Notes: generated by a model from the letters alone, not told the origin. A stretch of DNA of 35,345 bases from an uncultured Methanosarcinales archaeon (GCA_964535955.1 CAZHVK010000013.1:1-35345); one strand, 5' to 3'; positions 1,945 to 23,395 are shown, counted from the first letter of the stretch. Program-made: numbers and translations.

Positions 1945-2059
1945 AGTATGTGTATGGTGTCTGTAAGACAAGTGAGTACATAACACATTGTAAAACGATC
2001 AGGGCTTTCAAAACAATAATACAAAAACATTGAAAGTACGAACGAACCATACACATACT
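1945..2059 (+). repeat. structured dispersed element, family 1 copy A
   Basis: 14-bp terminal inverted repeat AGTATGTGTATGGT/ACCATACACATACT enclosing a GTCT-GTA-AGAC hairpin and the AAGTGAGTA...TACGAACGA core; homologous to 4607-4715 and 23284-23395. Confidence 0.85.
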
Positions 2060-2128
2060 AGAAAAAAACACAAATATATTTATAAACATTAAATAAAACT
2101 TTAAAAACAACCTAAGAGGTGAGTGAGT

Positions 2129-3481
2129 ATGAGCAAAATCTTCAAAGCATATGATATAAGAGGTATTTATCCTGAAGAGATAGATGAATTAATGGTTTAC
2201 AAGATTTCTAAAGCATACTGCGAATTTGTAAAACCACAAAAAGTAGTAATTGGTTGTGATGTAAGAACATCTTCACCATCTTTGAAAAAAGCAGCAATCA
2301 AAGCAATCACAGATTTAGGTATAAAAGTCATAGATGTTGGAACAATATCAACAGATATGCTGTATTTTTCAGTTGCAAACTATGGTTATGATGGTGGTTT
2401 ATCAATAACAGCTTCACACAATCCAAGAGAATACAATGGAATAAAGATGGTAAGAGAAAAATCTATTCCAATTTCATCTGATTCAGGTTTATATGATATA
2501 AGGGATATGGTAATGCAAATGGATTTAGATAAAAGTGTGTTAGATGGAGAAATCAATAAAAACTTAGTTGAACAAAAAGACATAATACATGATTATGTAA
2601 CTAAGATCAAAACATTTGCAAACTTTTCTAAGTTTAAAAAATTCAAAATAGTTGTTAATCCTAATTTTGGAGCAGCTGGCAAACCTCTCACCAATTTATT
2701 GGAAGGTACAGGAATAGAATTAGTAAAAATCAATTTTGAACCAGACGGCACATTTCCAAAAGGCAGACCAGATCCATTGATTCCAGAGAACAGGACAGAA
2801 GTCTCAGAATTAATAAAAAAATCAAATGCAGACTTAGGTGTTGCATGGGATGCTGACGCAGACAGATGTTTCTTTTTCACAGAAAAGGGTGAGTTTATTG
2901 AAGGTTATTTTGTAACAGCTTTATTAGCAAAGATATTTCTGAAAAAGAATCTCGGTGAGAAAATAATACATGATACAAGACTAACATGGGCAATAAAGGA
3001 CACTGTTAAAGAACTCTGTGGAAAGAATATACCAACAAAAGCAGGACATTCATTTATCAAAGAAAGAATGAAAAAAGAAAATGCATTATTTGGTGGTGAG
3101 ATGAGTGCACATTATTATTTTAGAGACTATTATTACTGTGACAATGGTATGATTCCCTTGGTAATGATGCTTGAATTTCTTTCAACACAAGAAAAAACAT
3201 TATCACAAGTAATGCATGATATGTTTTTTAATAAATATTATGTAAGCGGTGAAATAAACACAAAAGTCGAAGATGTTCAGACAATATTAAATAAAGCAGA
3301 ACAAACTTATTTATATGGAACAATTGACAAGACAGATGGTGTTTCTGTTGAATTCACTGACTGGAGATTTAATGTCAGACCAAGTAATACAGAGCCTGTC
3401 ATAAGACTCAATGTTGAAGCAAAATCAAAAGAATTAATGGAAAAGAAAAGAGATGAATTATTGGGATTGATTAGGGGTTAA
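2129..3481 (+). CDS. phosphomannomutase/phosphoglucomutase
   Basis: FKAYDIRG, ITASHNP phosphoserine loop, DADADR metal loop, GEMSAH; ATG at 2129 after GAGGTGA RBS. Confidence 0.95.
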   Translation: MSKIFKAYDIRGIYPEEIDELMVYKISKAYCEFVKPQKVVIGCDVRTSSPSLKKAAIKAITDLGIKVIDVGTISTDMLYFSVANYGYDGGLSITASHNPREYNGIKMVREKSIPISSDSGLYDIRDMVMQMDLDKSVLDGEINKNLVEQKDIIHDYVTKIKTFANFSKFKKFKIVVNPNFGAAGKPLTNLLEGTGIELVKINFEPDGTFPKGRPDPLIPENRTEVSELIKKSNADLGVAWDADADRCFFFTEKGEFIEGYFVTALLAKIFLKKNLGEKIIHDTRLTWAIKDTVKELCGKNIPTKAGHSFIKERMKKENALFGGEMSAHYYFRDYYYCDNGMIPLVMMLEFLSTQEKTLSQVMHDMFFNKYYVSGEINTKVEDVQTILNKAEQTYLYGTIDKTDGVSVEFTDWRFNVRPSNTEPVIRLNVEAKSKELMEKKRDELLGLIRG

Positions 3482-3876
3482 TCATCATCTTTACTAAACT
3501 GTTCTTGATACTTTACTAGTAAATCTGCTGTATCATCTCCTGCTAATGACCTTACATTATCAAGATAATGTCTAACAACATCTTTAAAAAAATGATTAAT
3601 CATAGAAACATTCTCAACATCATTTTTGAGAAAATAATCACATTGAAAAGAAGAGATCTGTCCAGCCAGGTCAACTTCATATTCTTCATCTTTATCAGAT
3701 TCAAGAAAATAAACATTTAGTATCAAATTATTATTACTAGAAAGATTAAATTCCCCAAAAAGAACATCTGGAAATTTTTCTTCTAAAGCTTCTTTAAAAT
3801 CAAAATAATGTTCCTTGTTTGTTTCTAATTTATTAATACGTGTCCTCAGTTTTGCTATAACATAATCTAATGTCAT
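3478..3876 (-). CDS. hypothetical acidic protein
   Basis: 132-aa ORF, TATA-like TTTATATA about 25 bp upstream (leaderless); no family recognised. Confidence 0.55.
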   Translation of the reverse strand: MTLDYVIAKLRTRINKLETNKEHYFDFKEALEEKFPDVLFGEFNLSSNNNLILNVYFLESDKDEEYEVDLAGQISSFQCDYFLKNDVENVSMINHFFKDVVRHYLDNVRSLAGDDTADLLVKYQEQFSKDDD

Positions 3877-3930
3877 ACATTCTACTTAGACAAAATAATA
3901 TATAAAGATTTGTATTATTAACCAACAACA

Positions 3931-3987
3931 TAACCACTTACCTAGTCAAGGGCGGGTGGTTGGGGGTAATGGAAGGTGGGAAACAAA
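3931..3987 (+). repeat. hairpin/G-rich dispersed element, family 2 copy A
   Basis: TAACCACTTACC...GGGCGGGTGGTTGGGGGTAATGGAAGGTGGGAAA, near-identical ends to 12071-12157. Confidence 0.8.
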
Positions 3988-3994
3988 CTATAAC

Positions 3995-4573
3995 TTACTT
4001 CTTCCCCCTTCTATTCAGATTAGCTCTTTTACTAGGCCTAACTTTTTCAGCGCCTTTTCCTTTGTTCCGCAATCCACGTGATTTCTTACCAGAACTTGTC
4101 AAACCTCTGAACACTCTTCCTCTTTTCCTAAACATCCAGCTAACATTTTTATCAGCTAAGATCTGAGGATGCATTGGATCAACTAATATAATTTCATACC
4201 ATTTATATTGAGCATCTTGTGCAACCCAATAACTGTTCAGAACTTCACAATTCTTATATTTTTTATTAGCTCTCTGCTCTGCAATTGTCTGATAATTCAT
4301 GTTCAGCACCATCTTTTGCCTAGCATGTTTTGGTCTACGTCCACCTGTTATGTTTGGCCTTTTGTGTCCGCCTCTGCCAACTCTTTGCCTGACTAATATA
4401 AAACCTTTTTTTGCTTTATAACCTAGTGATCTTGCTCTATCTAATCTAGTAGGTCTTTTAATTCTTATTGTTACAGGATCTTTTCTCCATAGAATTAATC
4501 TTTTTTGCCATAATTCTGGCATTGTTTTTCTTGGTTTTTTCCAAAGTTTTCTAATGTGTTTATACATACTCAT
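3995..4573 (-). CDS. rpl15e: 50S ribosomal protein L15e (eL15)
   Basis: [51 protein letters not shown]. Confidence 0.98.
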
Positions 4574-4606
4574 TTTTGTTAGCCTCCATTATTTGAATTA
4601 ATTTTA

Positions 4607-4715
4607 GTGAAATTGTCGCCTGTAAGGCCAGTGAGCAAATGTTAGTTTCACAAGACAACATTGTTGCTTCACTTGCACTCATATTACATGAAGCATGCGA
4701 ACGAGGCAATTTCAC
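4607..4715 (+). repeat. structured dispersed element, family 1 copy B (divergent)
   Basis: 11-bp terminal stem GTGAAATTGTC/GGCAATTTCAC (one G-T), GCCT-GTA-AGGC hairpin, CAGTGAGCA...TGCGAACGA core, two inner stems AATGTT/AACATT and TGCTTCA/TGAAGCA. Confidence 0.8.
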
Positions 4716-4720
4716 ACAAA

Positions 4721-4766
4721 GTTCAGGTAAGCTACTACCCACATCCTTTGATGATATATGGGATTT
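4721..4766 (-). promoter_or_regulatory. candidate eL15 ribosomal-protein mRNA leader
   Basis: Minus strand reads CCCATAT-N11-ATGTGGG overlapping GGTAG-TAGC-TTACC-TGAAC, just downstream of TTTATAAA (4775-4782) and upstream of rpl15e; match to known archaeal eL15 leaders is from memory only. Confidence 0.45.
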
Positions 4767-4880
4767 GAATTTTATTTATAAATCTTACTATACAATATAA
4801 AAATACTACTTTACAATAGTAAAAAGGGAAAACTTTATAAAGCAAAACACATTCCCCATACACAGTTTGAGGGAAATCAT

Positions 4881-6197
4881 ATGTTAAGAAATCCAGAAGA
4901 TTATTCAAAATATTATGTTCTAGAACTTGATACAGATAGAGCTCCATTAGAAGACAAGACATTATTAAAAGAAGATTTAGCACAATTTTTAAGAAAAGAA
5001 GTAGCTGAATTTGGCTTTGTCACTGCTAAAGATGCAAGAGACACTGAATATTTTGTAGTAGTTACAACATTAGATGAAAGAATTGATTATTTTGTTGACA
5101 CACAAAATGTGATTGAACAAAAGATTAAAGATCTAGAATTACACAGTGGTTTCACACTTAGAAAAGCCACACTAAGAGAGATACAACATACTGAAAGCAT
5201 TATCCATAAATCACTAAGCATACCTACCACTTATGACCCTGACCAAATATATGAGAAAAGGGAACAATATGTTCAAGATCTTGAACAATTGGTAATGCAA
5301 ACTGAAGAAGAATTACAAACATTAGAAAAAGATAAGAAAAAAACCACAGTTGGAGAACAACAAGTAGCACAATTTAAAAAAAAAAACAAACTTCTTAATT
5401 CTGAGATAATTGTTCTGAAAGAGACTGAAAAACAATCAACAAATAGAATAAAAGAACTCGAAAAACAATTATCACACAAAGCAGTCAGTCTAGATGAAAT
5501 AATTGAAATAATTGAAAGAAATGTGAAAAATGAAGTAGCAGAAATTAAAAAACTAAAAAAATCAAGAGAATCACCAGAATACCAAAAAATGGAAAAATCA
5601 GTATTAAAATATCATGGCAAAGAAAACAAGATGCCTGCAGCAGTAAAATCAATCTATGCTAGAAAAAAATTACTATTTGAAAAGATGAGAAAAGGCATTT
5701 CTGATAAGATAAATCAACATGTTAATAATCTGCTTCAATATGATGAAGAGAGTCTTGGCATGGCAAGCAAGATTTGTCCAAATGTTTATGATGGAACAGA
5801 GGTCCCTGAATTAAAAAGACTTCCTTCTGAAGATGAACTAAATGAATACTTAAAAGGATTAAATGAAATATCAGCAGGACTGATAATAACTTATGGAAGA
5901 CAAGAATACCACTACGAAAACTTATCACTTGAAGATGCTTTACAATGCAGATTATTTGAATATGGTATTAGAAAAATTGAGCATGAAAACAAAAAAAGAT
6001 TAAAAGAAAAAAAGAGACCCAGAATAAGAAGAATAAAAAAAGAGATAGAAGTAATTGTGCATAATTTTATGAAAACACAAGGCAAAAGAAGATTTGATTT
6101 TAAATTTAATTATACAAGAGCAAAAACACTTATGAAAAGATTAGGACATTGTACAAAAGAAATAGATAATGAATATATGCTAACTAATGGTAATTAA
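4881..6197 (+). CDS. hypothetical coiled-coil protein
   Basis: 438-aa K/E-rich ORF with central heptad-like region; TATA CTTTATAAA upstream. Confidence 0.7.
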   Translation: MLRNPEDYSKYYVLELDTDRAPLEDKTLLKEDLAQFLRKEVAEFGFVTAKDARDTEYFVVVTTLDERIDYFVDTQNVIEQKIKDLELHSGFTLRKATLREIQHTESIIHKSLSIPTTYDPDQIYEKREQYVQDLEQLVMQTEEELQTLEKDKKKTTVGEQQVAQFKKKNKLLNSEIIVLKETEKQSTNRIKELEKQLSHKAVSLDEIIEIIERNVKNEVAEIKKLKKSRESPEYQKMEKSVLKYHGKENKMPAAVKSIYARKKLLFEKMRKGISDKINQHVNNLLQYDEESLGMASKICPNVYDGTEVPELKRLPSEDELNEYLKGLNEISAGLIITYGRQEYHYENLSLEDALQCRLFEYGIRKIEHENKKRLKEKKRPRIRRIKKEIEVIVHNFMKTQGKRRFDFKFNYTRAKTLMKRLGHCTKEIDNEYMLTNGN

Positions 6198-7410
6198 AAT
6201 GGTTGTCACAAAAAAACAAGAAAAGAAAAAACTTACTGAAAAGATCTACTTAATAGAATTAAAAGGAAAATCAACAAATATTCAAGGAATGCTTGAGACA
6301 ACAGGGGATATTATTAGAGGAGCGACTGCTTTTATAAATGATAGAAAGACAAATGAACAAGTAACATATGAAGAAGGAGAGAATTGTATTTTTGTCAAGA
6401 CACAACTGCTAGATACTAAAACAAATCTAACAGATACATTAGAAAAAAAATTAAAGAACAATGTGACTCTTAAAAGACGCAAAGTATCAGCAGGAGTAAA
6501 GAAAATAACAAAAAAACAATATCAAGAGCAAAAACCAAAAGACAAGAATGACAAGAAAAAGTCAAATGGAAAAGAAACAGAGGAAATAAATATTTACAAA
6601 GCACAAATTGATGTTCTAAAATCAGAATCGCAAGAATACATAAATCAAATAGATGGATTAAAAGAAGAAATGAAAACACTTAAACAGGATAAAGCAAAAA
6701 TAGATGAATCAAATGAAGAATTAATAAAAGAAAACATAGAACTTGAAGATGTGATTAAAGAACTAAAAAAAAGAGACAAAGATTTTATTGAAAAACTAAA
6801 ACAAGGACAATTGATTGATTATTTTGTAGAATTATTAGAAGAAGTTGAAAAGATTTACAAAAACAAAGCACATGAAGAAGCTAAAAAAATAATTCAATTC
6901 TATAAAGATGAATTTGAAGTTGAAGATCCAAAAGATCTTGAAGATGAAGAATTTAGAGAATCTCTTGAATCTGCACTAAGAATTCATGAAGAATATCAAA
7001 AAGATACAGCAAAAAGTGAAAAAAAAGTAGTCGAAAGTGGAGAAACTTATGATACAATAATAAACACTGCTTGCGAAGCAACAAGATGGCTAATGGAAAG
7101 CGAAAATGAAGAATTAAAAGCAATCGCAAGAAAAGGAATGATACAATTTATGAGCATTTTTCAGCAATACTTAGGTGGAAAAGAAGAAACATCTGAACAA
7201 GAACTTAGTCATGAAGAATTATTTAGAAAAGCCATAGAAGAAGGACATGGAAAAGCTGATGAAATAACAGATTATATTAAACAACAGGATCCTAAATTCA
7301 ATAAATGGAAACTATACAGACTAGCAAAAGAAATGGAAGACATAACTACGCAAGGTAAAACAAGAGGAGCAAGATATGTCCTTATAAAAACAGATAACAC
7401 ATCACAATAA
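6187..7410 (+). CDS. hypothetical coiled-coil protein with possible C-terminal winged helix
   Basis: Overlaps the upstream ORF; central coiled coil; C-terminus ADEITDYI...KLYRLAKEMEDITTQGKTRGARYV resembles a wHTH wing. Confidence 0.65.
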   Translation: MVIKMVVTKKQEKKKLTEKIYLIELKGKSTNIQGMLETTGDIIRGATAFINDRKTNEQVTYEEGENCIFVKTQLLDTKTNLTDTLEKKLKNNVTLKRRKVSAGVKKITKKQYQEQKPKDKNDKKKSNGKETEEINIYKAQIDVLKSESQEYINQIDGLKEEMKTLKQDKAKIDESNEELIKENIELEDVIKELKKRDKDFIEKLKQGQLIDYFVELLEEVEKIYKNKAHEEAKKIIQFYKDEFEVEDPKDLEDEEFRESLESALRIHEEYQKDTAKSEKKVVESGETYDTIINTACEATRWLMESENEELKAIARKGMIQFMSIFQQYLGGKEETSEQELSHEELFRKAIEEGHGKADEITDYIKQQDPKFNKWKLYRLAKEMEDITTQGKTRGARYVLIKTDNTSQ

Positions 7411-7444
7411 TATTTAAATATCCTTATTCTGTCCTATATATATC

Positions 7445-8209
7445 ATGGATATATGGGACCAAATATTAAAAACAAGGGTGAAAGATATAGAAAGATTTGC
7501 TAATTTATTTCCTCAAGTAATTGATTATATTCTGTTTAAGAAAAGGGATTTTAATGATGATATGGAAGATAAAGATGATTATTTTCTAATAACAGAAGAA
7601 AACAGAGCAAATTGTGTGTTTGTACATGTTGTTCCAAAAGAACTAATGCAATTATTTAGACAAATGCAGATACAATCACCAAATGAATTCTATGGTTATT
7701 CTGTTCTTGCTGGTAGGCGTGATAATAAAGCTCTTAGAGTAACTTGTTTTGGTGTCCCTTGTTCAATATTATATAAAAGTATAATGAACAATGATATTGT
7801 AAAGGATATTAGGCAAGACAGTATTAAACATGTTGTTCTTGGTATGGTGTTTGATGATAGAGAAAGATTGTTAATGATAAAAACAACTAAACATCCATAT
7901 GAAGGACATTGGACATTACCAACTGGTGTGGTAAATAATAATGAACAAATAAACAATGCTGTAAAAAGAATAATTCATAATGAAACAGGTGTAATATCTG
8001 AGTTTGTAAAAGAAACAATGTTGATTGATAAGTTTGATAGAAGAAATAATAAAAATGTTCTGATACATTTCACATTATGCATTGCTCTGAATGACACAAC
8101 AGAGATTGGTGAAGAGGCAGAAGATGTTCGTTGGTTTTCAAAGCAAGATTTATTAACTATAAAGATTGTGCCTGAGTTTAAGAAGTATATTTTTGAAAGA
8201 TTATTCTAA
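7445..8209 (+). CDS. NUDIX-fold protein with uncharacterised N-terminal domain
   Basis: C-terminal GHWTLPTGVVNNNEQINNAVKRIIHNETGV (degenerate Nudix box) and EAEDVRWF. Confidence 0.75.
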   Translation: MDIWDQILKTRVKDIERFANLFPQVIDYILFKKRDFNDDMEDKDDYFLITEENRANCVFVHVVPKELMQLFRQMQIQSPNEFYGYSVLAGRRDNKALRVTCFGVPCSILYKSIMNNDIVKDIRQDSIKHVVLGMVFDDRERLLMIKTTKHPYEGHWTLPTGVVNNNEQINNAVKRIIHNETGVISEFVKETMLIDKFDRRNNKNVLIHFTLCIALNDTTEIGEEAEDVRWFSKQDLLTIKIVPEFKKYIFERLF

Positions 8210-8212
8210 TTA

Positions 8213-8255
8213 TGTGGTGTATAACCCAAAGGTTTATATATCTGTGGTGTATAAC
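8213..8255 (+). promoter_or_regulatory. 13-bp direct repeats flanking the BRE/TATA box of the Fic gene
   Basis: TGTGGTGTATAAC at 8213-8225 and 8243-8255 on either side of AAAGGTTTATATA. Confidence 0.7.
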
Positions 8256-8263
8256 TCCTTAGT

Positions 8264-9627: not shown

Positions 9628-9667
9628 TACTTAACTTTATAAACACTTTTTCTTTCCTTTTTTTATT

Positions 9668-10654: not shown

Positions 10655-10656
10655 AA

Positions 10657-11151: not shown

Positions 11152-11207
11152 AGAATAGATTATAGTAATTATAGTTTATAAAGATTTATGTATTAAAATA
11201 ATAGAAT

Positions 11208-11506: not shown

Positions 11507-12073
11507 ATGCGAAAAGAATTAAGATTTCATGGAAGGGGCGGACAAGGTGCAAAAACAGCTGCAGATTTACTAGCAAGAGCTGCTATTCTAGATGATAAAT
11601 ATGTAAGAGCATTCCCTGAATATGGCCCAGAACGAGCAGGCGCACCTGTAAAAACATTTGTAAGAATTTCTAATGAAAAAATAAGAACCTTTGCACCAAT
11701 AACAAAGCCAGACATTGTCATGGTATTAGATGAAACATTATTAGACAGTGTTGATGTTACACAAGGACTAAAGAAGAAAGGAATTTTATTAGTAAATTCA
11801 AAGAATAAACCAAAAGAAATTAAGAAAAAAACAAAATTCAAAGGAAAAACATTCTGCATTGATGCTTCAAAAATCTCTATAAAACAAATGGGTGTTAATT
11901 TACCTAACATTCCCTTGCTTGGTGCTCTTGTCAAACTAACTAATATTGTTAATCTAAAAAACCTTATGAGTGTTATTAATTACAAATTCAGAAGAAAGAT
12001 AGGTCAAAAAAAGACAGACTCAAACATAAATGGCTTAAAAGAAGCTTATACTAGTATTGATCAAAAAAGCTAA
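11507..12073 (+). CDS. porC: pyruvate/2-oxoacid:ferredoxin oxidoreductase gamma subunit
   Basis: RFHGRGGQGAKT, FPEYGPERAGAPV. Confidence 0.93.
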   Translation: MRKELRFHGRGGQGAKTAADLLARAAILDDKYVRAFPEYGPERAGAPVKTFVRISNEKIRTFAPITKPDIVMVLDETLLDSVDVTQGLKKKGILLVNSKNKPKEIKKKTKFKGKTFCIDASKISIKQMGVNLPNIPLLGALVKLTNIVNLKNLMSVINYKFRRKIGQKKTDSNINGLKEAYTSIDQKS

Positions 12074-12157
12074 CCACTTACCAAGATATTCCCTAGCTTA
12101 GTCCCCTAACAAAATAGGGTGGGTGGTTGGGGGTTTTGGAAGGTGGGAAAAAACAAA
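12071..12157 (+). repeat. hairpin/G-rich dispersed element, family 2 copy B
   Basis: TAACCACTTACC...GGGTGGGTGGTTGGGGGTTTTGGAAGGTGGGAAA; begins at the porC stop codon. Confidence 0.8.
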
Positions 12158-12170
12158 TCAAGGTGATAAA

Positions 12171-12260
12171 ATGAATAAATTAATGGAATATGGAATGTGG
12201 ATTTTATTGGCGATTGCTGGAGTTTTATTAATTATAGGTATAATAAAAACATTTTTTTAA
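12171..12260 (+). CDS. 29-aa single-TM micropeptide, absent from the ORF track
   Basis: AGGTGA RBS then MNKLMEYGMWILLAIAGVLLIIGIIKTFF*. Confidence 0.6.
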   Translation: MNKLMEYGMWILLAIAGVLLIIGIIKTFF

Positions 12261-12268
12261 GATAAAAG

Positions 12269-12451: not shown

Positions 12452-12460
12452 AAAAACAAA

Positions 12461-12760: not shown

Positions 12761-13920
12761 AAAAAAGGATGAGAGCAATGACAGGGGCAGAAGCAAGTGC
12801 ATTTGCAATGAAGCAGATTAACCCAGACGTTGTTGCAGCATATCCAATTACACCACAAACACCAGTTATGCAAAAGTTTGCACAATATGTTGCAGATGGT
12901 GAAGTTGACACAGAATTTGTTAGAGTAGAATCAGAACACAGTGCAATGTCAGCATGTGTTGGAGCTAGTGCAGCAGGTGCAAGAGTAATGACAGCAACAG
13001 CTTCAGCAGGATTAGCACTGATGTTTGAGATAGTTGGAGTAGCTTCAGGAAGTAGATTACCAATTGTGATGAGCATTGTAAATAGAGCACTTAGCGCACC
13101 GATTAACATTCATTGTGATCATGGTGATTCAATGGCATGCAGAGACCACGGCTGGTTACAATTTTATTGTGAAACAGCACAAGAAGCATATGAATATACT
13201 TTGTTAGCAATGAAATTAGCAGAACACAAAGACATACAATTGCCAGTCATGGTATGTCAAGATGGTTTTATCACATCACACTGTGTTGATAATGTTCATA
13301 CTTATCCAACAGAATCAGTAAGACAATTTATAGGTAAGCATAAACCAGACAAATGGTTGCTAAACACAAAAGATCCTCACACTGTTGGTCCATTAGAACT
13401 GACAGATTATTATTTTGAAACCAAAAGACAACAAACACATGCAATAATGAATACTTTCAAGATATTTCCTAAAGTTGCTCGTGAATTACGTAGGATTACT
13501 CATAAAAAATATGATTACACAGCTGAGTACAAATTAAAAGACGCAGAAGTTGCAATTGTTGCAATGAGTTCAACATGCGGCATTATAAAAGAAGTTATTG
13601 ATAAATTAAGAAAAAAAGGTAAAAAAGTTGGTTTGTTAAAAGTAAGAATGTTCAGACCATTTCCATATTCAACAGTAAGACAAAGACTTGATCATCTAAA
13701 ATCAATAATTGTAATGGACAGGTCAGAGTCATTTGGTGCTAGGCCACCACTTTATGCAGAAGTCAGAAATGCTTTGTACAAGTTAGATAAAAGACCTAAT
13801 TTAATGAGTGTTATTTATGGTTTAGGTGGCAGAGATATTTATGAAAAAGATATTGAAAAACTTTTCAAAGATATGTTAGGTGGAAAGAAATGGGAAAGGA
13901 GATATGTGGGTGTTAGATAA
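12757..13920 (+). CDS. porA: pyruvate/2-oxoacid:ferredoxin oxidoreductase alpha subunit
   Basis: AAYPITPQT, VESEHSAMS, NRALSAPINIHCDH, YGLGGRD. Confidence 0.95.
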   Translation: MKKRMRAMTGAEASAFAMKQINPDVVAAYPITPQTPVMQKFAQYVADGEVDTEFVRVESEHSAMSACVGASAAGARVMTATASAGLALMFEIVGVASGSRLPIVMSIVNRALSAPINIHCDHGDSMACRDHGWLQFYCETAQEAYEYTLLAMKLAEHKDIQLPVMVCQDGFITSHCVDNVHTYPTESVRQFIGKHKPDKWLLNTKDPHTVGPLELTDYYFETKRQQTHAIMNTFKIFPKVARELRRITHKKYDYTAEYKLKDAEVAIVAMSSTCGIIKEVIDKLRKKGKKVGLLKVRMFRPFPYSTVRQRLDHLKSIIVMDRSESFGARPPLYAEVRNALYKLDKRPNLMSVIYGLGGRDIYEKDIEKLFKDMLGGKKWERRYVGVR

Positions 13921-14171
13921 TGCCAAGCATAATAACAACAGATGATCAAACACAAGAAGATCCTACAGAACTAGGAGCATTAGCATACACATTAAGATCA
14001 AGTCAATCACAAGCAGACCAAATTGCAGAAATTCCTAAATATTTAGGACCACTTGCAGAAGCATATTTAGATTGTTATGAAAAACAAATAGAACAAGCAA
14101 GATCAACTGAACCACCAACTCATGAAGGAAGAACCTTAGGACCATTAAGTAGAAGAGAAATATATGATTAA
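13920..14171 (+). CDS. hypothetical protein between porA and porB
   Basis: 83-aa ORF coupled to porA by a TAATG overlap and overlapping the porB start region. Confidence 0.55.
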   Translation: MPSIITTDDQTQEDPTELGALAYTLRSSQSQADQIAEIPKYLGPLAEAYLDCYEKQIEQARSTEPPTHEGRTLGPLSRREIYD

Positions 14172-15105
14172 AATGAACATAAAAGAATTAGCTCAACTAA
14201 AACAAGACAATGTAAAGTTTGCACCCGGACATAGATCATGCTCTGGCTGTCCATTCCCACCTATTGTCAGAACAGTTTTAGCAGCTGCAAAAGATGATGT
14301 AGTTGTAAGTAATGCAACTGGTTGTTTAGAAGTAACATCAACAATATATCCATACACATCGTGGAAAGTTCCATGGATACATAATGCATTTGAAAATGCA
14401 GCAGCAACAATATCAGGAGCAGAAGCAGCATATGTATCATTAAAGAGAACAGGCAAGATACCAAAAGACAAAGTAATTAAATTTATAACATTTGGTGGTG
14501 ATGGAGGAACTTATGATATTGGTTTACAAAGTCTGTCCGGAGCTTTAGAAAGAGGCCATAAATTCCTTTATGTTCTTTATGATAATGAAGCTTATATGAA
14601 CACTGGTATTCAAAGAAGTAGTGCAACACCATACGGAGCAGCAACTACAACAACACCTGCTGGTAAAGTACATCCAGGCAAAGAAAAATTCAAAAAAGAT
14701 ATAACAAAGATCATGGTTGCACACAATCTTAAATATGTTGCACAAGCATCTGTGCACAATTTAATTGATCTTTATAATAAAGCAGAAAAAGCAATTAACA
14801 CAGATGGTCCTACATTCATAAATGTTTTATCTCCTTGTATTCCTGGTTGGAAAATTGATACAAATTCTGCTATTAAGATTGCAAAGCTAGGTGTTGAGAC
14901 TAATTTCTGGCCATTGTATGAAGTAGAAAATGGCAAATACAAACTAAACTATGAACCTAGCAAACCAAAACCAATTGAAGAATGGCTTAAACCACAAGGT
15001 AGATTTAGACATCTTTTCAAAGAAAAAAACAAACACATTATTGAAAAGATACAAAAACATGTTGATGAAGAGTTTGAAAAGTTAAAGAAGCTATGTACAG
15101 ACTGA
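14164..15105 (+). CDS. porB: pyruvate/2-oxoacid:ferredoxin oxidoreductase beta subunit
   Basis: GHRSCSGC, ATGCLEV, GGDGG...DNEAYMNTGIQRS TPP-binding motif, SPC. Confidence 0.95.
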   Translation: MIKMNIKELAQLKQDNVKFAPGHRSCSGCPFPPIVRTVLAAAKDDVVVSNATGCLEVTSTIYPYTSWKVPWIHNAFENAAATISGAEAAYVSLKRTGKIPKDKVIKFITFGGDGGTYDIGLQSLSGALERGHKFLYVLYDNEAYMNTGIQRSSATPYGAATTTTPAGKVHPGKEKFKKDITKIMVAHNLKYVAQASVHNLIDLYNKAEKAINTDGPTFINVLSPCIPGWKIDTNSAIKIAKLGVETNFWPLYEVENGKYKLNYEPSKPKPIEEWLKPQGRFRHLFKEKNKHIIEKIQKHVDEEFEKLKKLCTD

Positions 15106-15146
15106 TTTACGATAACTTTATAAATAGACATTATTTCTCAAGTACT

Positions 15147-15404
15147 ATGAAAGCTACAATAGTCAATTATAGAATAGGAAGACATCATCAAAAGCCAAGA
15201 CACATGGTTATACATATACAAGATATTGATGACAAAGAAAAAGCTGAAAAATTAATAGGTAAAGAAGTAGTATGGACTACACCAGCTAAAAAAGAAATCA
15301 AAGGCAAGATCAAGTCAACACATGGTAATAAAGGTAATGTTAGAGCTGTGTTTGAAAAAGGTATGCCTGGTCAATCATTAGGAACAAAAGTTGAGATAAA
15401 ATAA
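15147..15404 (+). CDS. rpl35ae: 50S ribosomal protein L35Ae (eL33)
   Basis: IVNYRIGRHHQ, LIGKEVVW, HGNKGNVRAVFEKGMPGQSLG; start reassigned to ATG 15147 (TATA at about 15118). Confidence 0.95.
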   Translation: MKATIVNYRIGRHHQKPRHMVIHIQDIDDKEKAEKLIGKEVVWTTPAKKEIKGKIKSTHGNKGNVRAVFEKGMPGQSLGTKVEIK

Positions 15405-15443
15405 TTCTAATAATAAATAATTAAAAAAAAACAAAAGAAATCC

Positions 15444-15599
15444 TTATTTACCAGGACAAATATTTATTCCAATTGGTAATATTCCTGATGCAATTAGATA
15501 AGTTAAAGCAACACCAACTGCCAGACCTATTAAGAAAAATATCATTTCTTTTTTAAATAATAACCAAACAAATGCTTTTTTACTGAACTTCTTGAACAT
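15444..15599 (-). CDS. small membrane protein, possible class III signal peptide
   Basis: AGGTGA RBS before ATG 15599; MFKKFSKKA followed by a hydrophobic stretch. Confidence 0.6.
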   Translation of the reverse strand: MFKKFSKKAFVWLLFKKEMIFFLIGLAVGVALTYLIASGILPIGINICPGK

Positions 15600-15754
15600 T
15601 ATTATCACCTTTTTATTTTTTATATTTATTATTTTGTACACTTATTTATATACACATAGTATTTAAATGTTTTGAAATTTTTAAGAAATTTAGCATTACT
15701 TCTAAAAAGTGATTACACAAATTATATATATAAATAAGATTAAAATACTAAAAT

Positions 15755-17926: not shown

Positions 17927-17944
17927 ACACCCAACTTCAAAATC

Positions 17945-18247
17945 ATGATTAAAACTATCACTTCTCAAAAACTAGAAAAATATTTCAGCATAACAAAACA
18001 AGCTCTTAAAAAAGTAAAGATAGTAAACAAACAAACAAAAACAATCAAATGGAAAAGTAATGCAGAAGACTTCCTAGATATGGCAGAAAGATACTTTAGT
18101 GATGCAAAATACTTTAAGAAAAAAGGGGACATTGTGACTGCATTTGCAGCACTTAACTATGCACATGGCTGGCTAGATGCAGGAGCAAGATTAGGATTGT
18201 TTGATGTTGGTAAGGACAATGTATTGTTCACAGTAGATCCAGAATAA
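17945..18247 (+). CDS. DUF357 family protein
   Basis: DFLDMAERYFSDAKYF...AFAALNYAHGWLDAGARLG. Confidence 0.92.
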   Translation: MIKTITSQKLEKYFSITKQALKKVKIVNKQTKTIKWKSNAEDFLDMAERYFSDAKYFKKKGDIVTAFAALNYAHGWLDAGARLGLFDVGKDNVLFTVDPE

Positions 18248-18262
18248 ATAGGTGAAAATAAA

Positions 18263-18673
18263 ATGGCACTCTTCACACACAAAAAAAGAATAAAATTTCC
18301 CAAGCAAGAGATCAATCCTCAGCAGGAAATAAATGAAATATCTGAAAGATTATCATACTTAACAAACAAACAAATACACATAAAAAAACAAAACATAAAA
18401 CAGAACAATGCATCAGAGACAGAAATATTACATTTAAAAAACCAATTAAAGGTAATAAAGTCAGACATTATAGAAATAAAACAAAAAACACAGCAAGTTA
18501 AAAACAATTTTGATAATGCTATAAAAGAACTTAACATGCGTGCAAAGATTGAAGACCTAGACCGTGTAAAAAGAATAATACAAGAATATGATCCAGCAGA
18601 TCTAATACCATATGAAGATTTTAGAAAAATAGCAGAAGAAAGAATTAATGCTTTAATAAATAAACCTACTTAA
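18263..18673 (+). CDS. hypothetical coiled-coil protein
   Basis: 136-aa ORF, AGGTGA RBS. Confidence 0.65.
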   Translation: MALFTHKKRIKFPKQEINPQQEINEISERLSYLTNKQIHIKKQNIKQNNASETEILHLKNQLKVIKSDIIEIKQKTQQVKNNFDNAIKELNMRAKIEDLDRVKRIIQEYDPADLIPYEDFRKIAEERINALINKPT

Positions 18674-20045
18674 ACTTCATCATACCTTTACCAGCACCTT
18701 GAAACCGTTTCATCATTTGCTGCATCTTTTTATCAGACTTACCAGCACCAACACCTTTAAACATTTTCATCATTTTTTTACTCTTTTTATATTGTTTTAA
18801 TAATTCTCTGATCTCGCCAACACTACAGCCACTGCCTTTTGCAACACGATCAATCCTTGTAGTACTCATGATATCAGGATTTTCTAATTCTTTTTTAGTA
18901 AAAGAATTCATAATAAATCTCCATTTTTTTAATTTATCTTCTTGAACCTTTAACATATCTTTAGGAATATTCATGTTACCAAAACCAGGGATCATATCCA
19001 TTATCTTACCCAAAGGTCCCATCTTATTAACAGCCTGCATTTGTTCATAAAGATCAATAAGATTAAACTCACCTTTTAAGAATTTCTTGCCAAGATCTTT
19101 AGCATCTTCTTCTGTAATAACTTCCTTAGCCTTTTCAAGCAAAGCTTTAAGATCCCCCATTCCTAATAATTTTCCAACAAATCTTTCTGGTTCAAAAACA
19201 TCAATATCATCAATTTTTTCACCGATTCCAATAAACTTAACAGGAGCACTTGTTACAGAGCATGCTGTTAAAGCACCACCACCTTTAGCAGTACCATCAA
19301 GCCTTGTGATGATCACACCAGTCACATTACAAGTATCGTGAAACTTTTGTGCTTGATCTTTAGCAGCTTGTCCAATATCAGCACTCATCACAAGAATTCT
19401 TTCATCAGGTTGAGCATGTTTATTCAAAGTATTAAGTTCTTGAACCAAATCATCACTAAGTGCATCTCTTCCAGCTGTATCTATCAATAAGATATCAAAT
19501 TTAGAAAACTGATCTTTGAACTTATCATATATCTTGATAACATCTTTCTCACCCCTATCAATAAAATAAGGTAAGTTAGCAGATTTAGCAATTTGTTCTA
19601 ATTGGTCCATTGCAGCTGGCCTATGAATATCAAGACCAAGCAAAGCAACTCTATAACCACGCTTTGCATAATACTTTCCTAATTTACCCATAGAAGTTGT
19701 CTTACCATTACCAAACAATCCAACCAGCATGATCTTAAACGGCTTTTTCTTAGCATCAATCTTTATATCATGAGCTTCTTTACCTAAGAAATTAGTCAAT
19801 TCTTCATATACAATGTTAATTAAATGCTCTTTTTTTGTTAAACCAGCAGCTGTGTCTTCTTTCTTAATCCTATCCTTGATCTTATTCGATAGATCAAACA
19901 CTAATTGTACATTAACATCTGATTGTAATAAAGATCTTTGTATATCTTTAACTAACTCATTTATTAGTTTATCATCTACAAAGACTGATTTAGCTATTTT
20001 CCCTAATGTATCTCTTAATGAAGAGCCTAGTTTGTCTAATACCAT
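18666..20045 (-). CDS. srp54: signal recognition particle 54-kDa protein
   Basis: GLFGNGKTT, DTAGR, DGTAKGGGAL, GIGEK, Met-rich M domain with RVAKGSG. Confidence 0.97.
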   Translation of the reverse strand: MVLDKLGSSLRDTLGKIAKSVFVDDKLINELVKDIQRSLLQSDVNVQLVFDLSNKIKDRIKKEDTAAGLTKKEHLINIVYEELTNFLGKEAHDIKIDAKKKPFKIMLVGLFGNGKTTSMGKLGKYYAKRGYRVALLGLDIHRPAAMDQLEQIAKSANLPYFIDRGEKDVIKIYDKFKDQFSKFDILLIDTAGRDALSDDLVQELNTLNKHAQPDERILVMSADIGQAAKDQAQKFHDTCNVTGVIITRLDGTAKGGGALTACSVTSAPVKFIGIGEKIDDIDVFEPERFVGKLLGMGDLKALLEKAKEVITEEDAKDLGKKFLKGEFNLIDLYEQMQAVNKMGPLGKIMDMIPGFGNMNIPKDMLKVQEDKLKKWRFIMNSFTKKELENPDIMSTTRIDRVAKGSGCSVGEIRELLKQYKKSKKMMKMFKGVGAGKSDKKMQQMMKRFQGAGKGMMKFK

Positions 20046-20109
20046 ATTATACTGCTAAAAGAAGGTACTGTTTATAAATTTTTAGGGTATATTACAATAT
20101 ACATAGAAT

Positions 20110-20427
20110 TCAAAGTTTTTCCTCTTCCTGTCCCCACCTAACACGTTCCCAGATACGTTCATGAACATAATAAAGAAAAAACCTAATAACATGAAACAAA
20201 ACAGTAACAATTGTTGCTTTTTGTATATCTTTAGTATAATACCAACTGATAATTCCCAGAATAATGATTCCAATAGTTCTCCAGACAATTGATTTAACAA
20301 TAGACCTAGTAGGAGTATCTATTAACCTGACATATACTTTTCTAATTCTTTTAAATCTCTTTTTAGAACTATTCTTTTTCTTACTTTTCCTCTTTTTAGT
20401 AGACCGAATCCTCTTTTTTGTTGCCAT
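20110..20427 (-). CDS. DUF2061 family membrane protein
   Basis: RSIVKSIVWR...LYYVHERIWERVRWG. Confidence 0.85.
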   Translation of the reverse strand: MATKKRIRSTKKRKSKKKNSSKKRFKRIRKVYVRLIDTPTRSIVKSIVWRTIGIIILGIISWYYTKDIQKATIVTVLFHVIRFFLYYVHERIWERVRWGQEEEKL

Positions 20428-20448
20428 AGTATCATTAAAAAACTAGTA

Positions 20449-21330
20449 TTATTTAAACCTTTTCAACCAACCACCTAAAACCTTAATCATTCCTTTGAGA
20501 TTAGGACTATAATGATGATTAGCATTCTTCACAACAATTGTTTTACATTTAACATTTGCAGAATCTTTTATCAATTGCAAACTTTTTTCAATATTCTCTT
20601 GTGCCATATGTTCTTCAGATCCACCAAGAATGGCAAGAATAGGAACCTTGATCTTAGAAATATAATTTAATTTCTTTTTTGTATAGTCAAAGATTTTTGA
20701 TTCCACACCACAATGTAGGCCGTAATATCTTTCAGCAGTAAACAAGCCAATAAATTCCTTTTTTTTATTATTTTTAATCAATTTTTTAGCATGATTTAAT
20801 CTTTTCTTAAAAACTTTTTCACCACCATGCATTATTTCAGCATCAGTATCATTACACGGAGCTAATAAAACAACTCCTTTAACATTTTTATCATGTATTT
20901 GAGACAGATAATAACTAGATTTTTGACAACCAGTACTATGTCCTATAAGAAAGATCTTGTTACAGCCTCTTTTCTTTAGAAAATTCACTGCAGCTTGGAT
21001 ATCATGTTTACAATCAGTAAACCTTTCAAATCCAGCACCAATTACCTTACTCTTTTTATCTTTTTTTGAAGCATAGATTTTATTAATAAGTCCAAATCCT
21101 CTGTTATTGAACATCAAAAAGTTATACCCTAATGATTTTGAAAGATAATAAACAGACCTGATCAAATCTTTCCCATTCATCCTACCTGTTAATCCATGAA
21201 TAAAAACAATAGCTTTTTTGCTTCTAGTTTTAGAAAAAAAACCTTCCATCTCTAAATTATCTTTTGTTGGAAATACAACAAACTCACCTAACATCCCTTT
21301 ACCTTTACTTCTAAATAATTTTAGTTTCAT
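20449..21330 (-). CDS. alpha/beta hydrolase (DUF1749-like)
   Basis: VFIHGL, GHSTGCQ nucleophile elbow, ANHH. Confidence 0.85.
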   Translation of the reverse strand: MKLKLFRSKGKGMLGEFVVFPTKDNLEMEGFFSKTRSKKAIVFIHGLTGRMNGKDLIRSVYYLSKSLGYNFLMFNNRGFGLINKIYASKKDKKSKVIGAGFERFTDCKHDIQAAVNFLKKRGCNKIFLIGHSTGCQKSSYYLSQIHDKNVKGVVLLAPCNDTDAEIMHGGEKVFKKRLNHAKKLIKNNKKKEFIGLFTAERYYGLHCGVESKIFDYTKKKLNYISKIKVPILAILGGSEEHMAQENIEKSLQLIKDSANVKCKTIVVKNANHHYSPNLKGMIKVLGGWLKRFK

Positions 21331-23225
21331 CTCTTCTCCTCAACTTCCTTTTCTAATTCTTTAATAAAATCACTCACCTTGACTTCACCCAAGATCTTAT
21401 TATCTCTTGTACGAACATTAACAGTTTTGTTCTCAACTTCTTTGTCACCAATTACAAAGATATAATTAACTTTATCTAACTCAGCATCTCTTATCTTCTT
21501 GCCTGTTGTTTCTGCTCTATAGTCTTTTGTAACCTGAAACCCTTTTTTAAACAATTGAGAATAAACTTTTTCAGCATGTTCTTGATGACGATCAGCAATC
21601 GTAAGAATACGAACTTGCTCAGGAGACAACCATAATGGAAACTTACCTGCATAATGTTCAACTAAAACACCTAAAAATCTTTCAACACTTCCATATATTG
21701 CTCTGTGCACCATAACAGGCCTATGCTTTGTTCCATCTTTTCCTTCATATGCAAGATCAAACTTTTCAGGCATTGAAAAATCTACTTGTATTGTACCACA
21801 CTGCCATTTTCTTCCTAATGCATCTTTGATATGAAAATCAATCTTTGGCCCATAGAATGCGCCATCACCTGGATTAAGTTTATAATTTATTTTTTTCTTA
21901 GCAAGTGCATTTTTCAGAGCATTTTCTGCTTTATCCCATACTTTCTGAGATCCCATTGCTTTCTCAGGCTTTGTTGAAAGTTCAACAAGATACTCAAAAC
22001 CAAATGTTTTGTATACTCTATTTACAAGTTCAATTAATTCAATTATTTGTTCTTCTAATTGTTCTTCAGTACAAAACACATGCGCATCATCTTGTGTAAA
22101 ACATCGAACCCTGAACAAACCAGACAAAACTCCTGATAACTCATGCCTATGCACAAGACCAAACTCACCAGCTTTGATAGGTAATTCTCTATAAGAATGC
22201 ATTTGGGTTTTATATATCAACAAATTTCCAGGACAATTCATTGGTTTGACTGCAAAATCCTGTTTATCAATTTTTGTAAAATACATATTTTCTTTATAAT
22301 GATCCCAATGTCCTGACTGCAGCCATAAAGATTTGTTAAGAATTATTGGTGTTTTATTTACTTGATAATGTAATTTTCTCATTTCTTGTTCCATGTACCA
22401 AACCAATTTATTCCAAATATGCAGACCTCTTGAATGAAAAAATGGCATACCAGGTGCTTCATCATGAAAACTATACAAATCCAAATCCCTTCCAATTTTT
22501 CTATGATCTCTTTTCTTTGCTTCTTCTAATAGATGCAGATATTGTTTTAGTTCTTTTTTATCAGGAAATGATATTCCATATATTCTTTGTAATTGTTCTT
22601 TTTCAGCATCAGCTCTCCAATAAGCACCAGCAACTTTCATTAATTTGATTGCTTTGATCTGGCCTGTGTGTTGAACATGAGGACCCCTGCACAAAACAGT
22701 ATATTCACTATTTTTATAGATTGTAACTTTATCATCTTCTAATTCTTGAATCATTTCTACTCTGAACTTATTGTCTTTGAACATCTCAAGTGCTTCTTGT
22801 TTTGAAACTACTTGTCTTTCAAATGGTTGTTTTTCTTTGATTATCTCTTTCATCTTTTGTTCAATCTTTTCAAGATCTTTTTCTTTTATTGCTTGCATAT
22901 CAAAATCATAATAAAAACCTTCTTCAACAGCAGGCCCAATAGTGGGCTTTGCATTAGGATATAACCTCACAACAGCAGAAGCTAGTATGTGCGCAGATGA
23001 GTGTCGAAATACTTCAACTCCTTCTTTATCTTTGAAAGTAATAATTCTTATCTTAGAATTCTCATTAATGGAAGTGCTTAGGTCTTGTAATTTACCATTT
23101 ACTTCAATTGCTAAAGCAGCTCTTCCTAAACCTTCAGAAATATGATTAGCAATATCAATACCTTTGACACCTTTATCAAAGTCTTCTTTTGAACCATCTG
23201 GAAACTCTATCTTAATCTTTGTCAT
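21327..23225 (-). CDS. thrS: threonine--tRNA ligase, bacterial type with TGS and editing domains
   Basis: RHSSAH, LCRGPH, RDHRKIG, KPMNCP, GLFRVRCFTQDDAH, AFYGPKID, HRAIYGSVERF. Confidence 0.98.
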   Translation of the reverse strand: MTKIKIEFPDGSKEDFDKGVKGIDIANHISEGLGRAALAIEVNGKLQDLSTSINENSKIRIITFKDKEGVEVFRHSSAHILASAVVRLYPNAKPTIGPAVEEGFYYDFDMQAIKEKDLEKIEQKMKEIIKEKQPFERQVVSKQEALEMFKDNKFRVEMIQELEDDKVTIYKNSEYTVLCRGPHVQHTGQIKAIKLMKVAGAYWRADAEKEQLQRIYGISFPDKKELKQYLHLLEEAKKRDHRKIGRDLDLYSFHDEAPGMPFFHSRGLHIWNKLVWYMEQEMRKLHYQVNKTPIILNKSLWLQSGHWDHYKENMYFTKIDKQDFAVKPMNCPGNLLIYKTQMHSYRELPIKAGEFGLVHRHELSGVLSGLFRVRCFTQDDAHVFCTEEQLEEQIIELIELVNRVYKTFGFEYLVELSTKPEKAMGSQKVWDKAENALKNALAKKKINYKLNPGDGAFYGPKIDFHIKDALGRKWQCGTIQVDFSMPEKFDLAYEGKDGTKHRPVMVHRAIYGSVERFLGVLVEHYAGKFPLWLSPEQVRILTIADRHQEHAEKVYSQLFKKGFQVTKDYRAETTGKKIRDAELDKVNYIFVIGDKEVENKTVNVRTRDNKILGEVKVSDFIKELEKEVEEKR

Positions 23226-23283
23226 ATAATATCCCCTCCTGATACTATTAGTTGAAAACTAAATATAAATGTTTCTACTTTTT

Positions 23284-23395
23284 GTATGTGCATAGCGCCT
23301 ATTAGGCAAGTGAGCACCCTTAAGATTATAAAACGATCAGGGCTTTTCATGTAATGTTGCATTAGATGGAAAGTGCGAACGAGCTATGCACATAC
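23284..23395 (+). repeat. structured dispersed element, family 1 copy C
   Basis: 13-bp perfect terminal stem GTATGTGCATAGC/GCTATGCACATAC, GCCT-ATT-AGGC hairpin, AAGTGAGCA...TGCGAACGA core; shares TAAAACGATCAGGGCTTT with copy A. Confidence 0.85.

Follow-up and report, generated by a model that had tools for sequence, protein, structure and literature searches.

The window, by which we mean the full stretch of 35,345 nucleotides that was analysed, with coordinates counted from its first letter, harbors three full copies of a branched element of about 113 bp, together with the degenerate remnant of a fourth. All four are found on the + strand. An earlier note on this DNA had described the three full copies as antisense to the neighboring sepF, rpl15e and thrS genes; the orientation is as described, but the copies are all intergenic, so that the statement describes orientation only. 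Copies 1 and 2 each precede a gene of the same orientation, the intergenic region being divergent in both cases.

Copy 1 (1946..2058, + strand; 113 bp) has the P1 arms GTATGTGTATGGT and ACCATACACATAC, referred to here as type A, with an extra A-T pair at 1945/2059 beyond them, and it scores 121.6 bits against the covariance model. Copy 2 (4605..4717, + strand; 113 bp when its arms are counted as 13 nt; 108.9 bits) is paired over 4607-4715. Its P1 arms, GTGAAATTGTC and GGCAATTTCAC, are unrelated in sequence to type A, and its P5 is rebuilt through three double changes. The flanks of copies 1 and 2 match at 4 and 2 of 8 bases, respectively, and hold no duplication. Copy 3 (23284..23395, + strand; 112 bp; 121.3 bits) gives the complete architecture in its RNA MFE structure, with P1 at 23284-23296 / 23383-23395, P2 at 23297-23307, P3, containing a tandem G.A, at 23310-23316 / 23374-23380, P4 at 23317-23342 and P5 at 23343-23373, all on the + strand. 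This copy is flanked by the target-site duplication (TSD) TACTTTTT, upstream at 23276..23283 and downstream at 23396..23403 (+ strand; 8/8 match, background 1.85e-4). The last base of the copy, together with the downstream TSD, provides the TAG stop (23395-23397, - strand) of an ORF at 23395..24093.

The remnant, at 33322..33345 on the + strand, consists of a P1 5' arm of type A, into which 6 nt are inserted, followed by GCCTG, the first 5 nt of P2, after which the sequence is degenerate. It is found in the divergent intergenic region between an S3Ae gene (-) and a hypothetical gene (+), and is below the length detectable by the covariance model. Both this fourth copy and the 8-bp flanking repeats had been overlooked in the earlier note.

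When the window is scanned with the pattern AGTGAGYA-N40-70-TRCGAAC, exactly three matches are returned, all on the + strand (0.00 expected from 100 shuffles), and a looser pattern also gives three, against 0.08 expected. GTGAGYA and TRCGAAC lie 57-58 nt apart in each of the three full copies. The claim of three copies is thereby confirmed at the same positions, and every helix claimed for them is found: a P1 of 11-14 bp, a hairpin of 4 bp capped by a 3-nt loop, the GTGAGYA/TRCGAAC helix with its tandem G.A, and two inner stems.

Fold and family

The strict pattern scan covered 185,579 species genomes and identified five additional copies in three AT-rich archaeal MAGs, one of them labelled Woesearchaeota, with one or two strict-pattern copies in each of these three genomes. 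The covariance model adds two more, a copy of 226 nt whose P4 is expanded (L001b) and, adjoining it in L001, an internally deleted copy of 57 nt. The claim of a dispersed family with compensatory changes is upheld both by the copies in other genomes and by the double changes. Seven of the nine full copies are 112-114 bp in length. Pairwise identity among copies is 45-81% (45-72% for those in the window), and across the family the core is better conserved than the termini. Between types, the P1 arms are only 15-42% identical while the interiors are 47-81% identical, and the termini of type A are 85-96% identical across four genomes. Copy 1 and L005 have interiors that are 81% identical and P1 helices that are 23% identical, both arms having been swapped together.

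The copies in different genomes are flanked by no orthologous genes (no synteny), and a check for empty sites found the source sequences to be without any common orthologous region. Searches with blastn against phage and plasmid collections gave no match. In the literature, as far as it was accessible, no description of the family was found, and it may already have been detected automatically in an archaeal MITE census (PMC11602168).

The three full copies in the window follow the same order of P1, P2, P3 with the tandem G.A, P4 and P5. RNA folding of copies 1-3 gives z values of -4.7, -3.0 and -5.4 for the + strand and -3.3, -2.9 and -4.1 for the - strand; under DNA parameters the + strand gives -3.8, -3.0 and -5.8, and the values are similar for both strands. 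Pairing statistics were calculated from eight copies, the three in the window and the five from other genomes, over 32 pairs or 256 pair cells. Standard pairs occupy 94.9% of these cells, compared with 78.3% in shuffles, none of which (0/500) reaches the observed value, and sliding the partner strand drops pairing to 20-44%. Both sides have changed in 20 of the 32 pairs. P2, P3 and P5 are paired in 100% of cases and the 13 pairs of P1 in 93.3%. The tandem G.A is located inside a continuous helix, with GU/AC below, GYA/URC above and no bulge, and its register is fixed because Y38 and R100 covary. Loop-loop pairing between P4 and P5, spotted by eye, was dropped, as it is no more than would be expected by chance in AT-rich loops.

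G-T wobbles had been said to favor the + strand, and inside the helices of the eight copies there are indeed five G.U and no A.C; the argument is weak, however, with three A.C at the outermost P1 position and with one U.G and two A.C contributed by the long copy L001b. Selection on structure rather than sequence is apparent for P1, but not for the core, where both sequence and pairing are conserved.

The elements do not appear to belong to a known class of RNA. The comparison with Rfam proposed earlier gave no match: in Rfam 15, no family reaches gathering score in the window, and none falls on the elements at E<=10, with either the window or copy 3 alone as query. A tRNA origin was rejected, with ARAGORN finding no tRNA in the window or loci; the absence of calls is due to introns in the tRNA genes and not to the elements being tRNAs. 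The SRP RNA of L004 has only GCCUGU in common with P2, and an SRP or Alu-like origin was likewise rejected. The hammerhead type III core consists of CUGANGA, GAAA and UH around three helices. The helix order of the element is compatible with such a core, but the strand linking P2 to P3 has NAGUGA in place of CUGANGA, GAA is followed by three additional nucleotides, and the position at which cleavage would take place is a G. In kink-turns, including that of box C/D RNAs, a 3-nt bulge is followed by tandem sheared G.A pairs next to a canonical stem; this was ruled out by the bulge-free, continuous helix around the tandem G.A. An H/ACA reading was rejected on inspection of the core. Finally, no consistently open frame is present among the six frames of eight copies, and a protein-coding reading was set aside, the 66-aa ORF over copy 1 being spurious and without a homologue.

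Target-site duplications and gene boundaries

In three of the nine full copies, namely copy 3 (TACTTTTT), L001a (GAAAATTA) and L001b (TATGTTTT), the 13-nt P1 arms are directly bordered by exact direct repeats of 8 bp. At the same spacing, 8/8 matches are found at 102 of 551,317 genomic positions, or 1.85e-4, and the best flank match among 72 cross-copy controls is 6/8. The flanks of the remaining six full copies match at 2-4 of 8 bases; L003 is ambiguous, with an A-rich flank, and five have no duplication. The 8-bp repeats represent target-site duplications, and the elements are therefore insertions. In both copy 3 and L001a the repeat overlaps the neighboring stop codon, and once L001a is deleted with one of its repeats, the adjacent ORFs are again joined by a tight stop-SD-ATG operon junction. 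The 13-bp P1 constitutes a terminal inverted repeat (TIR), and arms of 11-14 bp (13 in type A) are present in all nine full copies. The element inserts at gene boundaries and in doing so duplicates 8 bp of AT-rich target DNA, and the family decays to internally deleted and shortened copies, with a P4 that can be expanded. The earlier suggestion of a non-autonomous mobile element is supported in this way by duplications that had not been seen when it was made.

Five of the nine full copies are found in divergent intergenic regions. Of the four in tandem gene contexts, three are co-oriented with the downstream gene and copy 3 is anti-oriented. L001a takes up the 137 nt that separate two co-oriented ORFs, a Pcc1-like one upstream and a prefoldin one downstream. 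A co-oriented start codon lies 25, 14 and about 5 nt beyond the ends of L001a, L003 and L006, respectively. L003 and L005 start approximately 3 and 13 nt past the upstream ORF. The downstream genes are unrelated to one another, and encode a phosphoglucomutase, a prefoldin, an ABC ATPase, an HTH regulator, a PUA protein and hypothetical proteins.

The search for a mobilising enzyme covered the 35-kb window and 76 kb of loci, amounting to 111 kb and 95 ORFs, in which no transposase (DDE type included), HUH nuclease, RAYT, TnpA, TnpB or reverse transcriptase was found. This agrees with the earlier statement that the window encodes no cognate enzyme, and a check beside the copies for a gene encoding HUH/RAYT/TnpA or a reverse transcriptase was equally negative within the 111 kb. 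The loci contain only two tyrosine recombinases, in L003 and L005, both several kb off. Neither additional terminal-repeat pairs bracketing an autonomous element (window and 76 kb of loci) nor an autonomous IS with matching termini (111 kb) was found.

Nature of the element

We consider that the copies are probably a non-autonomous, MITE-like transposable element of about 113 bp that belongs to AT-rich, DPANN-type archaea. An enzyme encoded elsewhere would mobilise the element in trans via 8-bp staggered cuts, which are a signature of DDE-type transposases. The asymmetric core would comprise P2 (GCCUGUAAGGC), GUGAG...CGAACGA with the tandem G.A, and P5, and its sequence and pairing may be kept because only copies that fold correctly as a single strand propagate or are tolerated. 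This single-stranded form is most likely RNA, as the read-through positions suggest: L001a, L003 and L006 must be transcribed with their neighbors, since L001a has no room for a promoter and L003 and L006 lie close to starts.

Several observations sit less easily with a MITE. No duplication is recognisable in six of the nine full copies, the identity of 45-81% among copies is far below that of a recent MITE burst, and the copy number may be low, at one or two strict-pattern copies in each of the other genomes. The combination of a conserved core with replaced arms is the opposite of what would be expected if a transposase recognised the sequence of the termini, and an autonomous partner was not found in the 111 kb. 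A minor possibility, then, is that the mobilising machinery reads the fold and not the terminal sequence. The element could be a transposon that moves as a folded single strand, either RNA or ssDNA, and integrates by an 8-bp staggered cut, or it could be a gene that is itself mobile and whose product is a functional RNA, for instance an RNP scaffold or a ribozyme not yet recognised as such. We know of no described family that combines folded-single-strand movement with an 8-bp staggered cut. This possibility is retained because the P1 arms are replaced together while interiors stay around 80% identical, because pairing in P2, P3 and P5 is complete and accompanied by compensatory changes, and because the core beside both ends is invariant and no transposase was seen in the 111 kb.

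The copies might instead form a stable chromosomal gene family whose product is a structured ncRNA that acts in trans, as a ribozyme or as part of an RNP, and in which P1 is only the closing stem. Such genes would account for a core that is nearly invariant across four genomes beside a freely covarying P1, for the excess of G.U over A.C inside the + strand helices, for the conserved tandem G.A, for the few strict-pattern copies per genome, and for the five of nine copies that are in divergent, promoter-rich regions. They would not be expected to carry three exact 8-bp TSDs or to have shortened and internally deleted copies without synteny; L001a lacks room for a promoter, L003 and L005 start almost directly after the upstream ORF, and Rfam offers no match, all of which makes stable ncRNA genes rather unlikely. 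The same TSDs weigh against a cis-regulatory 5'-UTR element, either riboswitch-like or a protein-binding leader of the downstream gene. The co-orientation of three of the four tandem-context copies and the short distances from L001a, L003 and L006 to their start codons would fit such a leader, but the downstream genes are unrelated and copy 3 is anti-oriented, and we regard it as very improbable. The other five of the nine contexts are uninformative on orientation because they are divergent.

The earlier note had favored a folded ssDNA element resembling REPs or IS200/IS605, on which an HUH (Y1) nuclease encoded at another locus would act. Pairing that is kept with compensatory changes, folding under DNA parameters as well, and the location of all four window copies on one strand are in keeping with this model. 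To our knowledge, however, HUH Y1 elements such as REP and IS200/IS605 insert without target-site duplication and have no terminal inverted repeats, and here both TIR and TSD are present. In addition, the 111 kb contain no HUH, RAYT, TnpA or TnpB gene, and the element is approximately three times as long as a REP and is not arranged in REP-like clusters. No link between the strand bias and replication can be drawn, because the GC skew of the window tracks gene orientation. The model is not supported, and we consider it very unlikely.

DPANN archaea have tiny, tightly packed genomes, in which mobile elements have barely been described. Insertions placed exactly at gene boundaries, on stop codons or in the space separating a stop from the ribosome-binding site that follows, provide a marker of recent genome change, and the element is also a likely source of annotation errors in the form of spurious ORFs and shifted starts. 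An invariant folded core with freely covarying termini is not what sequence-specific recognition by a transposase predicts, and the family thus represents a concrete archaeal case on which to test whether mobility can depend on structure, or whether an RNA gene can be mobile.

Comparison with known systems

As far as the accessible part of the MITE census describes them (PMC11602168), prokaryotic MITEs, which are non-autonomous derivatives of IS elements, share with the element a small size, the lack of an ORF, TIRs (13 bp here), the absence of a nearby transposase, a fixed-length TSD (8 bp here) in AT-rich intergenic DNA, and the occurrence of deleted or shortened derivatives; the same part describes a Woesearchaeal genome in which MITEs number 105 per Mb. 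In MITEs the termini are the best conserved part and the copies of one genome are highly similar. Here the termini differ from one subfamily to another, both arms together, and it is an asymmetric core in the interior that hardly varies. The copies are 45-81% identical rather than near-identical, and the fold is branched rather than one long hairpin. We know of no parent IS for an element of about 113 bp.

REPs are single imperfect palindromes of approximately 20-40 nt that are often clustered, have a RAYT (HUH Y1) gene and generate no TSD, and the ends of IS200/IS605 and PATEs have subterminal hairpins, no TIR, no TSD and a TnpA or TnpB partner. REP/BIME-RAYT systems, IS200/IS605 ends and PATEs are likewise folded, strand-asymmetric and intergenic, with the enzyme encoded elsewhere; they are, however, shorter single hairpins without TIR or TSD, whereas the fold here is branched, 113 nt in length and has both. 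SINEs derive from tRNA, 7SL or 5S RNA, and have duplications of variable length, A-rich tails and no terminal inverted repeat. Those such as Alu resemble the element in being mobile, non-coding, about 100-300 nt in length and flanked by TSDs, with an RNA-type fold that is selected among active copies. Unlike SINEs, the element here has a TIR and matches no known RNA, and no reverse transcriptase is found in the 111 kb.

In C/D box RNAs the C box is RUGAUGA and the D box CUGA, and both boxes are absent from copies 1-3. A MITE-like element of Pyrobaculum calidifontis carries C/D box sRNA-like sequences (PMC6009581), and, from the accessible part of that account, it too is archaeal, multi-copy and intergenic, with inverted repeats around an interior that resembles a structured sRNA. 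Its inverted repeats are described there as highly conserved and its interior as moderately so (PMC6009581), an order of conservation that is reversed in the element described here.

Architecture of the element and its relatives

The window is AT-rich (28-32% GC), and its genes are archaeal housekeeping genes (ribosomal proteins L15e, L35Ae, S17e and S3Ae; Alba, SepF, SRP54 and ThrRS). Three stretches that an earlier note had described as one folded family are confirmed as the sole matches in the window to AGTGAGYA-N40-70-TRCGAAC, with 0.00 expected, and all three lie on the + strand. Each is intergenic: copy 1 (1946-2058) is found between sepF (-) and a phosphoglucomutase gene (+), copy 2 (4605-4717) between rpl15e (-) and a hypothetical gene (+), and copy 3 (23284-23395) between thrS (-) and a peptidase-like gene (-). 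A fourth copy is a 24-nt remnant (33322-33345), comprising a 5' arm of type A, one of the outer-arm types, and the beginning of the adjacent hairpin. The fold of each of the three copies is better than that of shuffled sequence, and the minimum-energy fold of copy 3 displays the complete architecture. This consists of an outer stem of 13 bp (P1, the terminal inverted repeat), a hairpin (P2, GCCU-AUU-AGGC) followed by a linker of two bases, a core helix (P3) of GU/AC, tandem G.A and GCA/UGC, two inner stems (P4 and P5) carried on a perfect three-way junction, and a GA linker that leads into P1'.

A strict scan of 185,579 species genomes for P2, GTGAG and CGAACGA, with a gap of 43-73 nt, yields six loci (L001-L006), five of which hold true copies. 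The sixth, L002, is a chance match that is GC-rich, coding and without P1. The true copies are spread over three AT-rich archaeal MAGs, titled in their records as one Woesearchaeota and two 'uncultured Methanosarcinales', at only one or two strict-pattern copies per genome, the pattern being narrow and the MAGs incomplete. The L003-L006 records (contigs CAYWFN01 and CAZYAB01) carry the title 'uncultured Methanosarcinales archaeon'; the same element occurs in the Woesearchaeota-labelled MAG and in the window, the part of the surrounding sequence that was read is AT-rich, and the deposited label may be erroneous.

Trained on the eight copies (three in the window and five from the scan), a covariance model recovers the same eight at 106-125 bits and adds two more in L001, 59 nt apart within one divergent intergenic region (11845-12186, -). 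The larger, L001b (11845-12070, -), is 226 nt long, with P4 enlarged by ~110 nt of additional hairpins, an expansion that marks P4 as a cargo-tolerating site; its P2, GCAU/AUGC, provides a new compensatory pair. The smaller (12130-12186, -) is an internally deleted copy of 57 nt, made up of P1, P2 and ten further bases. Elsewhere in L001, an intein that contains a LAGLIDADG homing endonuclease domain splits a HerA/DUF87-type ATPase gene (13156-15594, -).

Across the eight copies, standard pairs fill 94.9% of 256 pair cells, as against 78.3% in shuffles, none of 500 of which reaches as high, and 20-44% when the partner is slid. Double-sided changes are found at 20 of the 32 pairs, and pairing in P2, P3 and P5 is 100%. 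The register of P3 is set by one pair, which two copies change from C-G to U-A and L001b shows in the intermediate form U.G. The wobble argument for the + strand, also from the earlier note, amounts to a weak signal: within the helices of the eight copies there are five G.U and no A.C oppositions, L001b contributes one U.G and two A.C, and both strands fold under RNA and DNA energy models alike.

Comparison with known RNAs and coding sequence

Against Rfam 15 the whole window has no match at gathering score; at E<=10 none falls on the elements, nor on copy 3 searched alone. Inspection also leads to rejection of a hammerhead (NAGUGA stands where the CUGANGA of hammerheads is expected), of a K-turn or C/D box RNA (the tandem G.A lies within an unbulged helix) and, from its core, of an H/ACA RNA, each set against the consensus sequence of its class. 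An SRP RNA origin of the core is likewise rejected. The sole gathering-score match in five loci is an archaeal SRP RNA (L004 7164-7438, -; 140.6 bits). No consistently open reading frame is present in the element, and a 66-aa ORF over copy 1, for which no homologue was found, is spurious.

Default ARAGORN calls no tRNA in the window. A tRNA gene interrupted by ~100 nt is nevertheless visible at 29590-29766 (+), with acceptor GGCGGTA...TACCGCC, D arm and T arm GAGTTCAAATCTC. It is missed by default ARAGORN and by the Rfam gathering score; relaxed ARAGORN calls a 99-nt intron, in which GATGA and CTGA motifs seen by eye are reminiscent of the C/D box sRNA consensus. A second tRNA-like gene, at about 31491-31642 (-), has a 5' GGACCCG that pairs with a 3' CGGGTTC, a D arm and GGTTCGAAT, and is broken by long insertions, one apparently within the T arm; Rfam at E<=10 on this region alone does not detect it. 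The absence of tRNA calls in 111 kb (window plus loci) is explained by the interruption of both genes.

Target-site duplications

A fixed rule set the element ends: 13 nt beyond P2 on one side and the same distance beyond CGAACGA on the other. Identical 8-base sequences then lie on both flanks in three of the nine full copies: TACTTTTT at copy 3 (23276-23283 and 23396-23403), GAAAATTA at L001a, the other full copy in L001, and TATGTTTT at L001b. The remaining six match at 2-4 of 8 positions; L003, with an A-rich repeat of 8-10 nt at slightly asymmetric offsets, is counted as ambiguous. Cross-copy controls (72 comparisons) reach at most 6/8, and the background rate of 8/8 at the same spacing over all 111 kb is 1.85e-4, so that by our own arithmetic the chance of three such matches in nine trials is ~5e-10. 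The conclusion survives a generous correction for the choice of boundary and repeat length. As the three repeats differ from one another, they are neither part of the element nor the core site of a recombinase, but target-site duplications. When L001a and one repeat are taken out, a compact operon junction (stop, 13 nt, GGTGA, ATG) is restored.

In two of these three copies, insertion falls exactly on the neighbouring stop codon (window 23395-23397 for copy 3; L001 7877-7879 for L001a). The repeat overlaps the stop codon and, when the remaining base of that codon is counted, is 9 bp long at both sites, so that the stop is retained with and without the insertion.

A mobile element with a conserved fold

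Terminal inverted repeats, a fixed 8-bp duplication, a constant small size (112-114 bp in seven of nine full copies) and the lack of coding capacity define the element as a MITE-like non-autonomous transposon, as do its deleted, truncated and expanded derivatives and its insertion at unrelated gene boundaries without synteny. An 8-bp staggered cut is the signature of DDE-type transposition. The earlier note had proposed a REP-like or IS200/IS605-like single-stranded DNA element served by an HUH (Y1) nuclease encoded elsewhere. Its broader idea of a mobile, non-autonomous element with a distant enzyme stands, and the cognate enzyme is absent from the window as it said: no transposase, HUH nuclease or reverse transcriptase occurs among the 95 ORFs of window and loci, nor does a second arm pair able to bracket an autonomous copy. 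The HUH mechanism itself is disfavoured: HUH Y1 systems (IS200/IS605, REP/RAYT) are not known to duplicate the target site or to end in inverted repeats, and this element does both. L003 and L005 each carry, 6-8 kb from the element, a gene for a tyrosine recombinase of the phage integrase family (L003 537-1732, -, adjoining an HNH-repeat protein gene; L005 18081-18824, +). These may be part of other integrated elements or XerA-like enzymes, and no link to the family is seen.

A plain MITE is an ill match in other respects. Overall identity between copies is 45-81%, and strict-pattern copies elsewhere number only one or two per genome. Across four genomes, arms of type A (RTATGTGTATGGT) retain 85-96% identity, and those of copy 2, L003 and L005 are quite unlike them; copy 1 and L005 share 81% identity in the interior and 23% in P1. 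Replacement of P1 is always joint, with both arms changed and length constant. The inner part of P1 is a different variant in each of the three copies that keep their duplications intact, the outer (G/A)TATGT...ACATAC being common to these three. What is invariant in the family is an asymmetric core adjoining both ends. Identity range, joint arm swaps, invariant core and low copy number together suggest that selection acts on the folded single strand.

The likeliest setting of that strand is RNA, given where several copies are placed. L001a occupies the entire gap between two co-oriented ORFs, with no space for its own promoter; L003 and L005 begin ~3 and 13 nt downstream of the preceding ORF, and L003 and L006 end 14 and ~5 nt upstream of a co-oriented start. 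With such spacing, copies of this kind would have to be transcribed together with their neighbours. Only four contexts say anything on orientation relative to the downstream gene: in three the element runs with the gene and in one it does not. Mobilisation that depends in one step on the structure, or a mobile gene whose RNA has a function, is a possibility of low probability. The family is of moderate interest, and of more if the fold proves to be the recognised feature.

Judged on open-access text, this MITE-like family of DPANN archaea is new as well as structurally unusual, though it may be listed in the published MITE census (PMC11602168), which records 105 MITEs per Mb in one woesearchaeal genome. 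An archaeal precedent is provided by Pyrobaculum calidifontis, where inverted repeats surround an sRNA-like core (PMC6009581).
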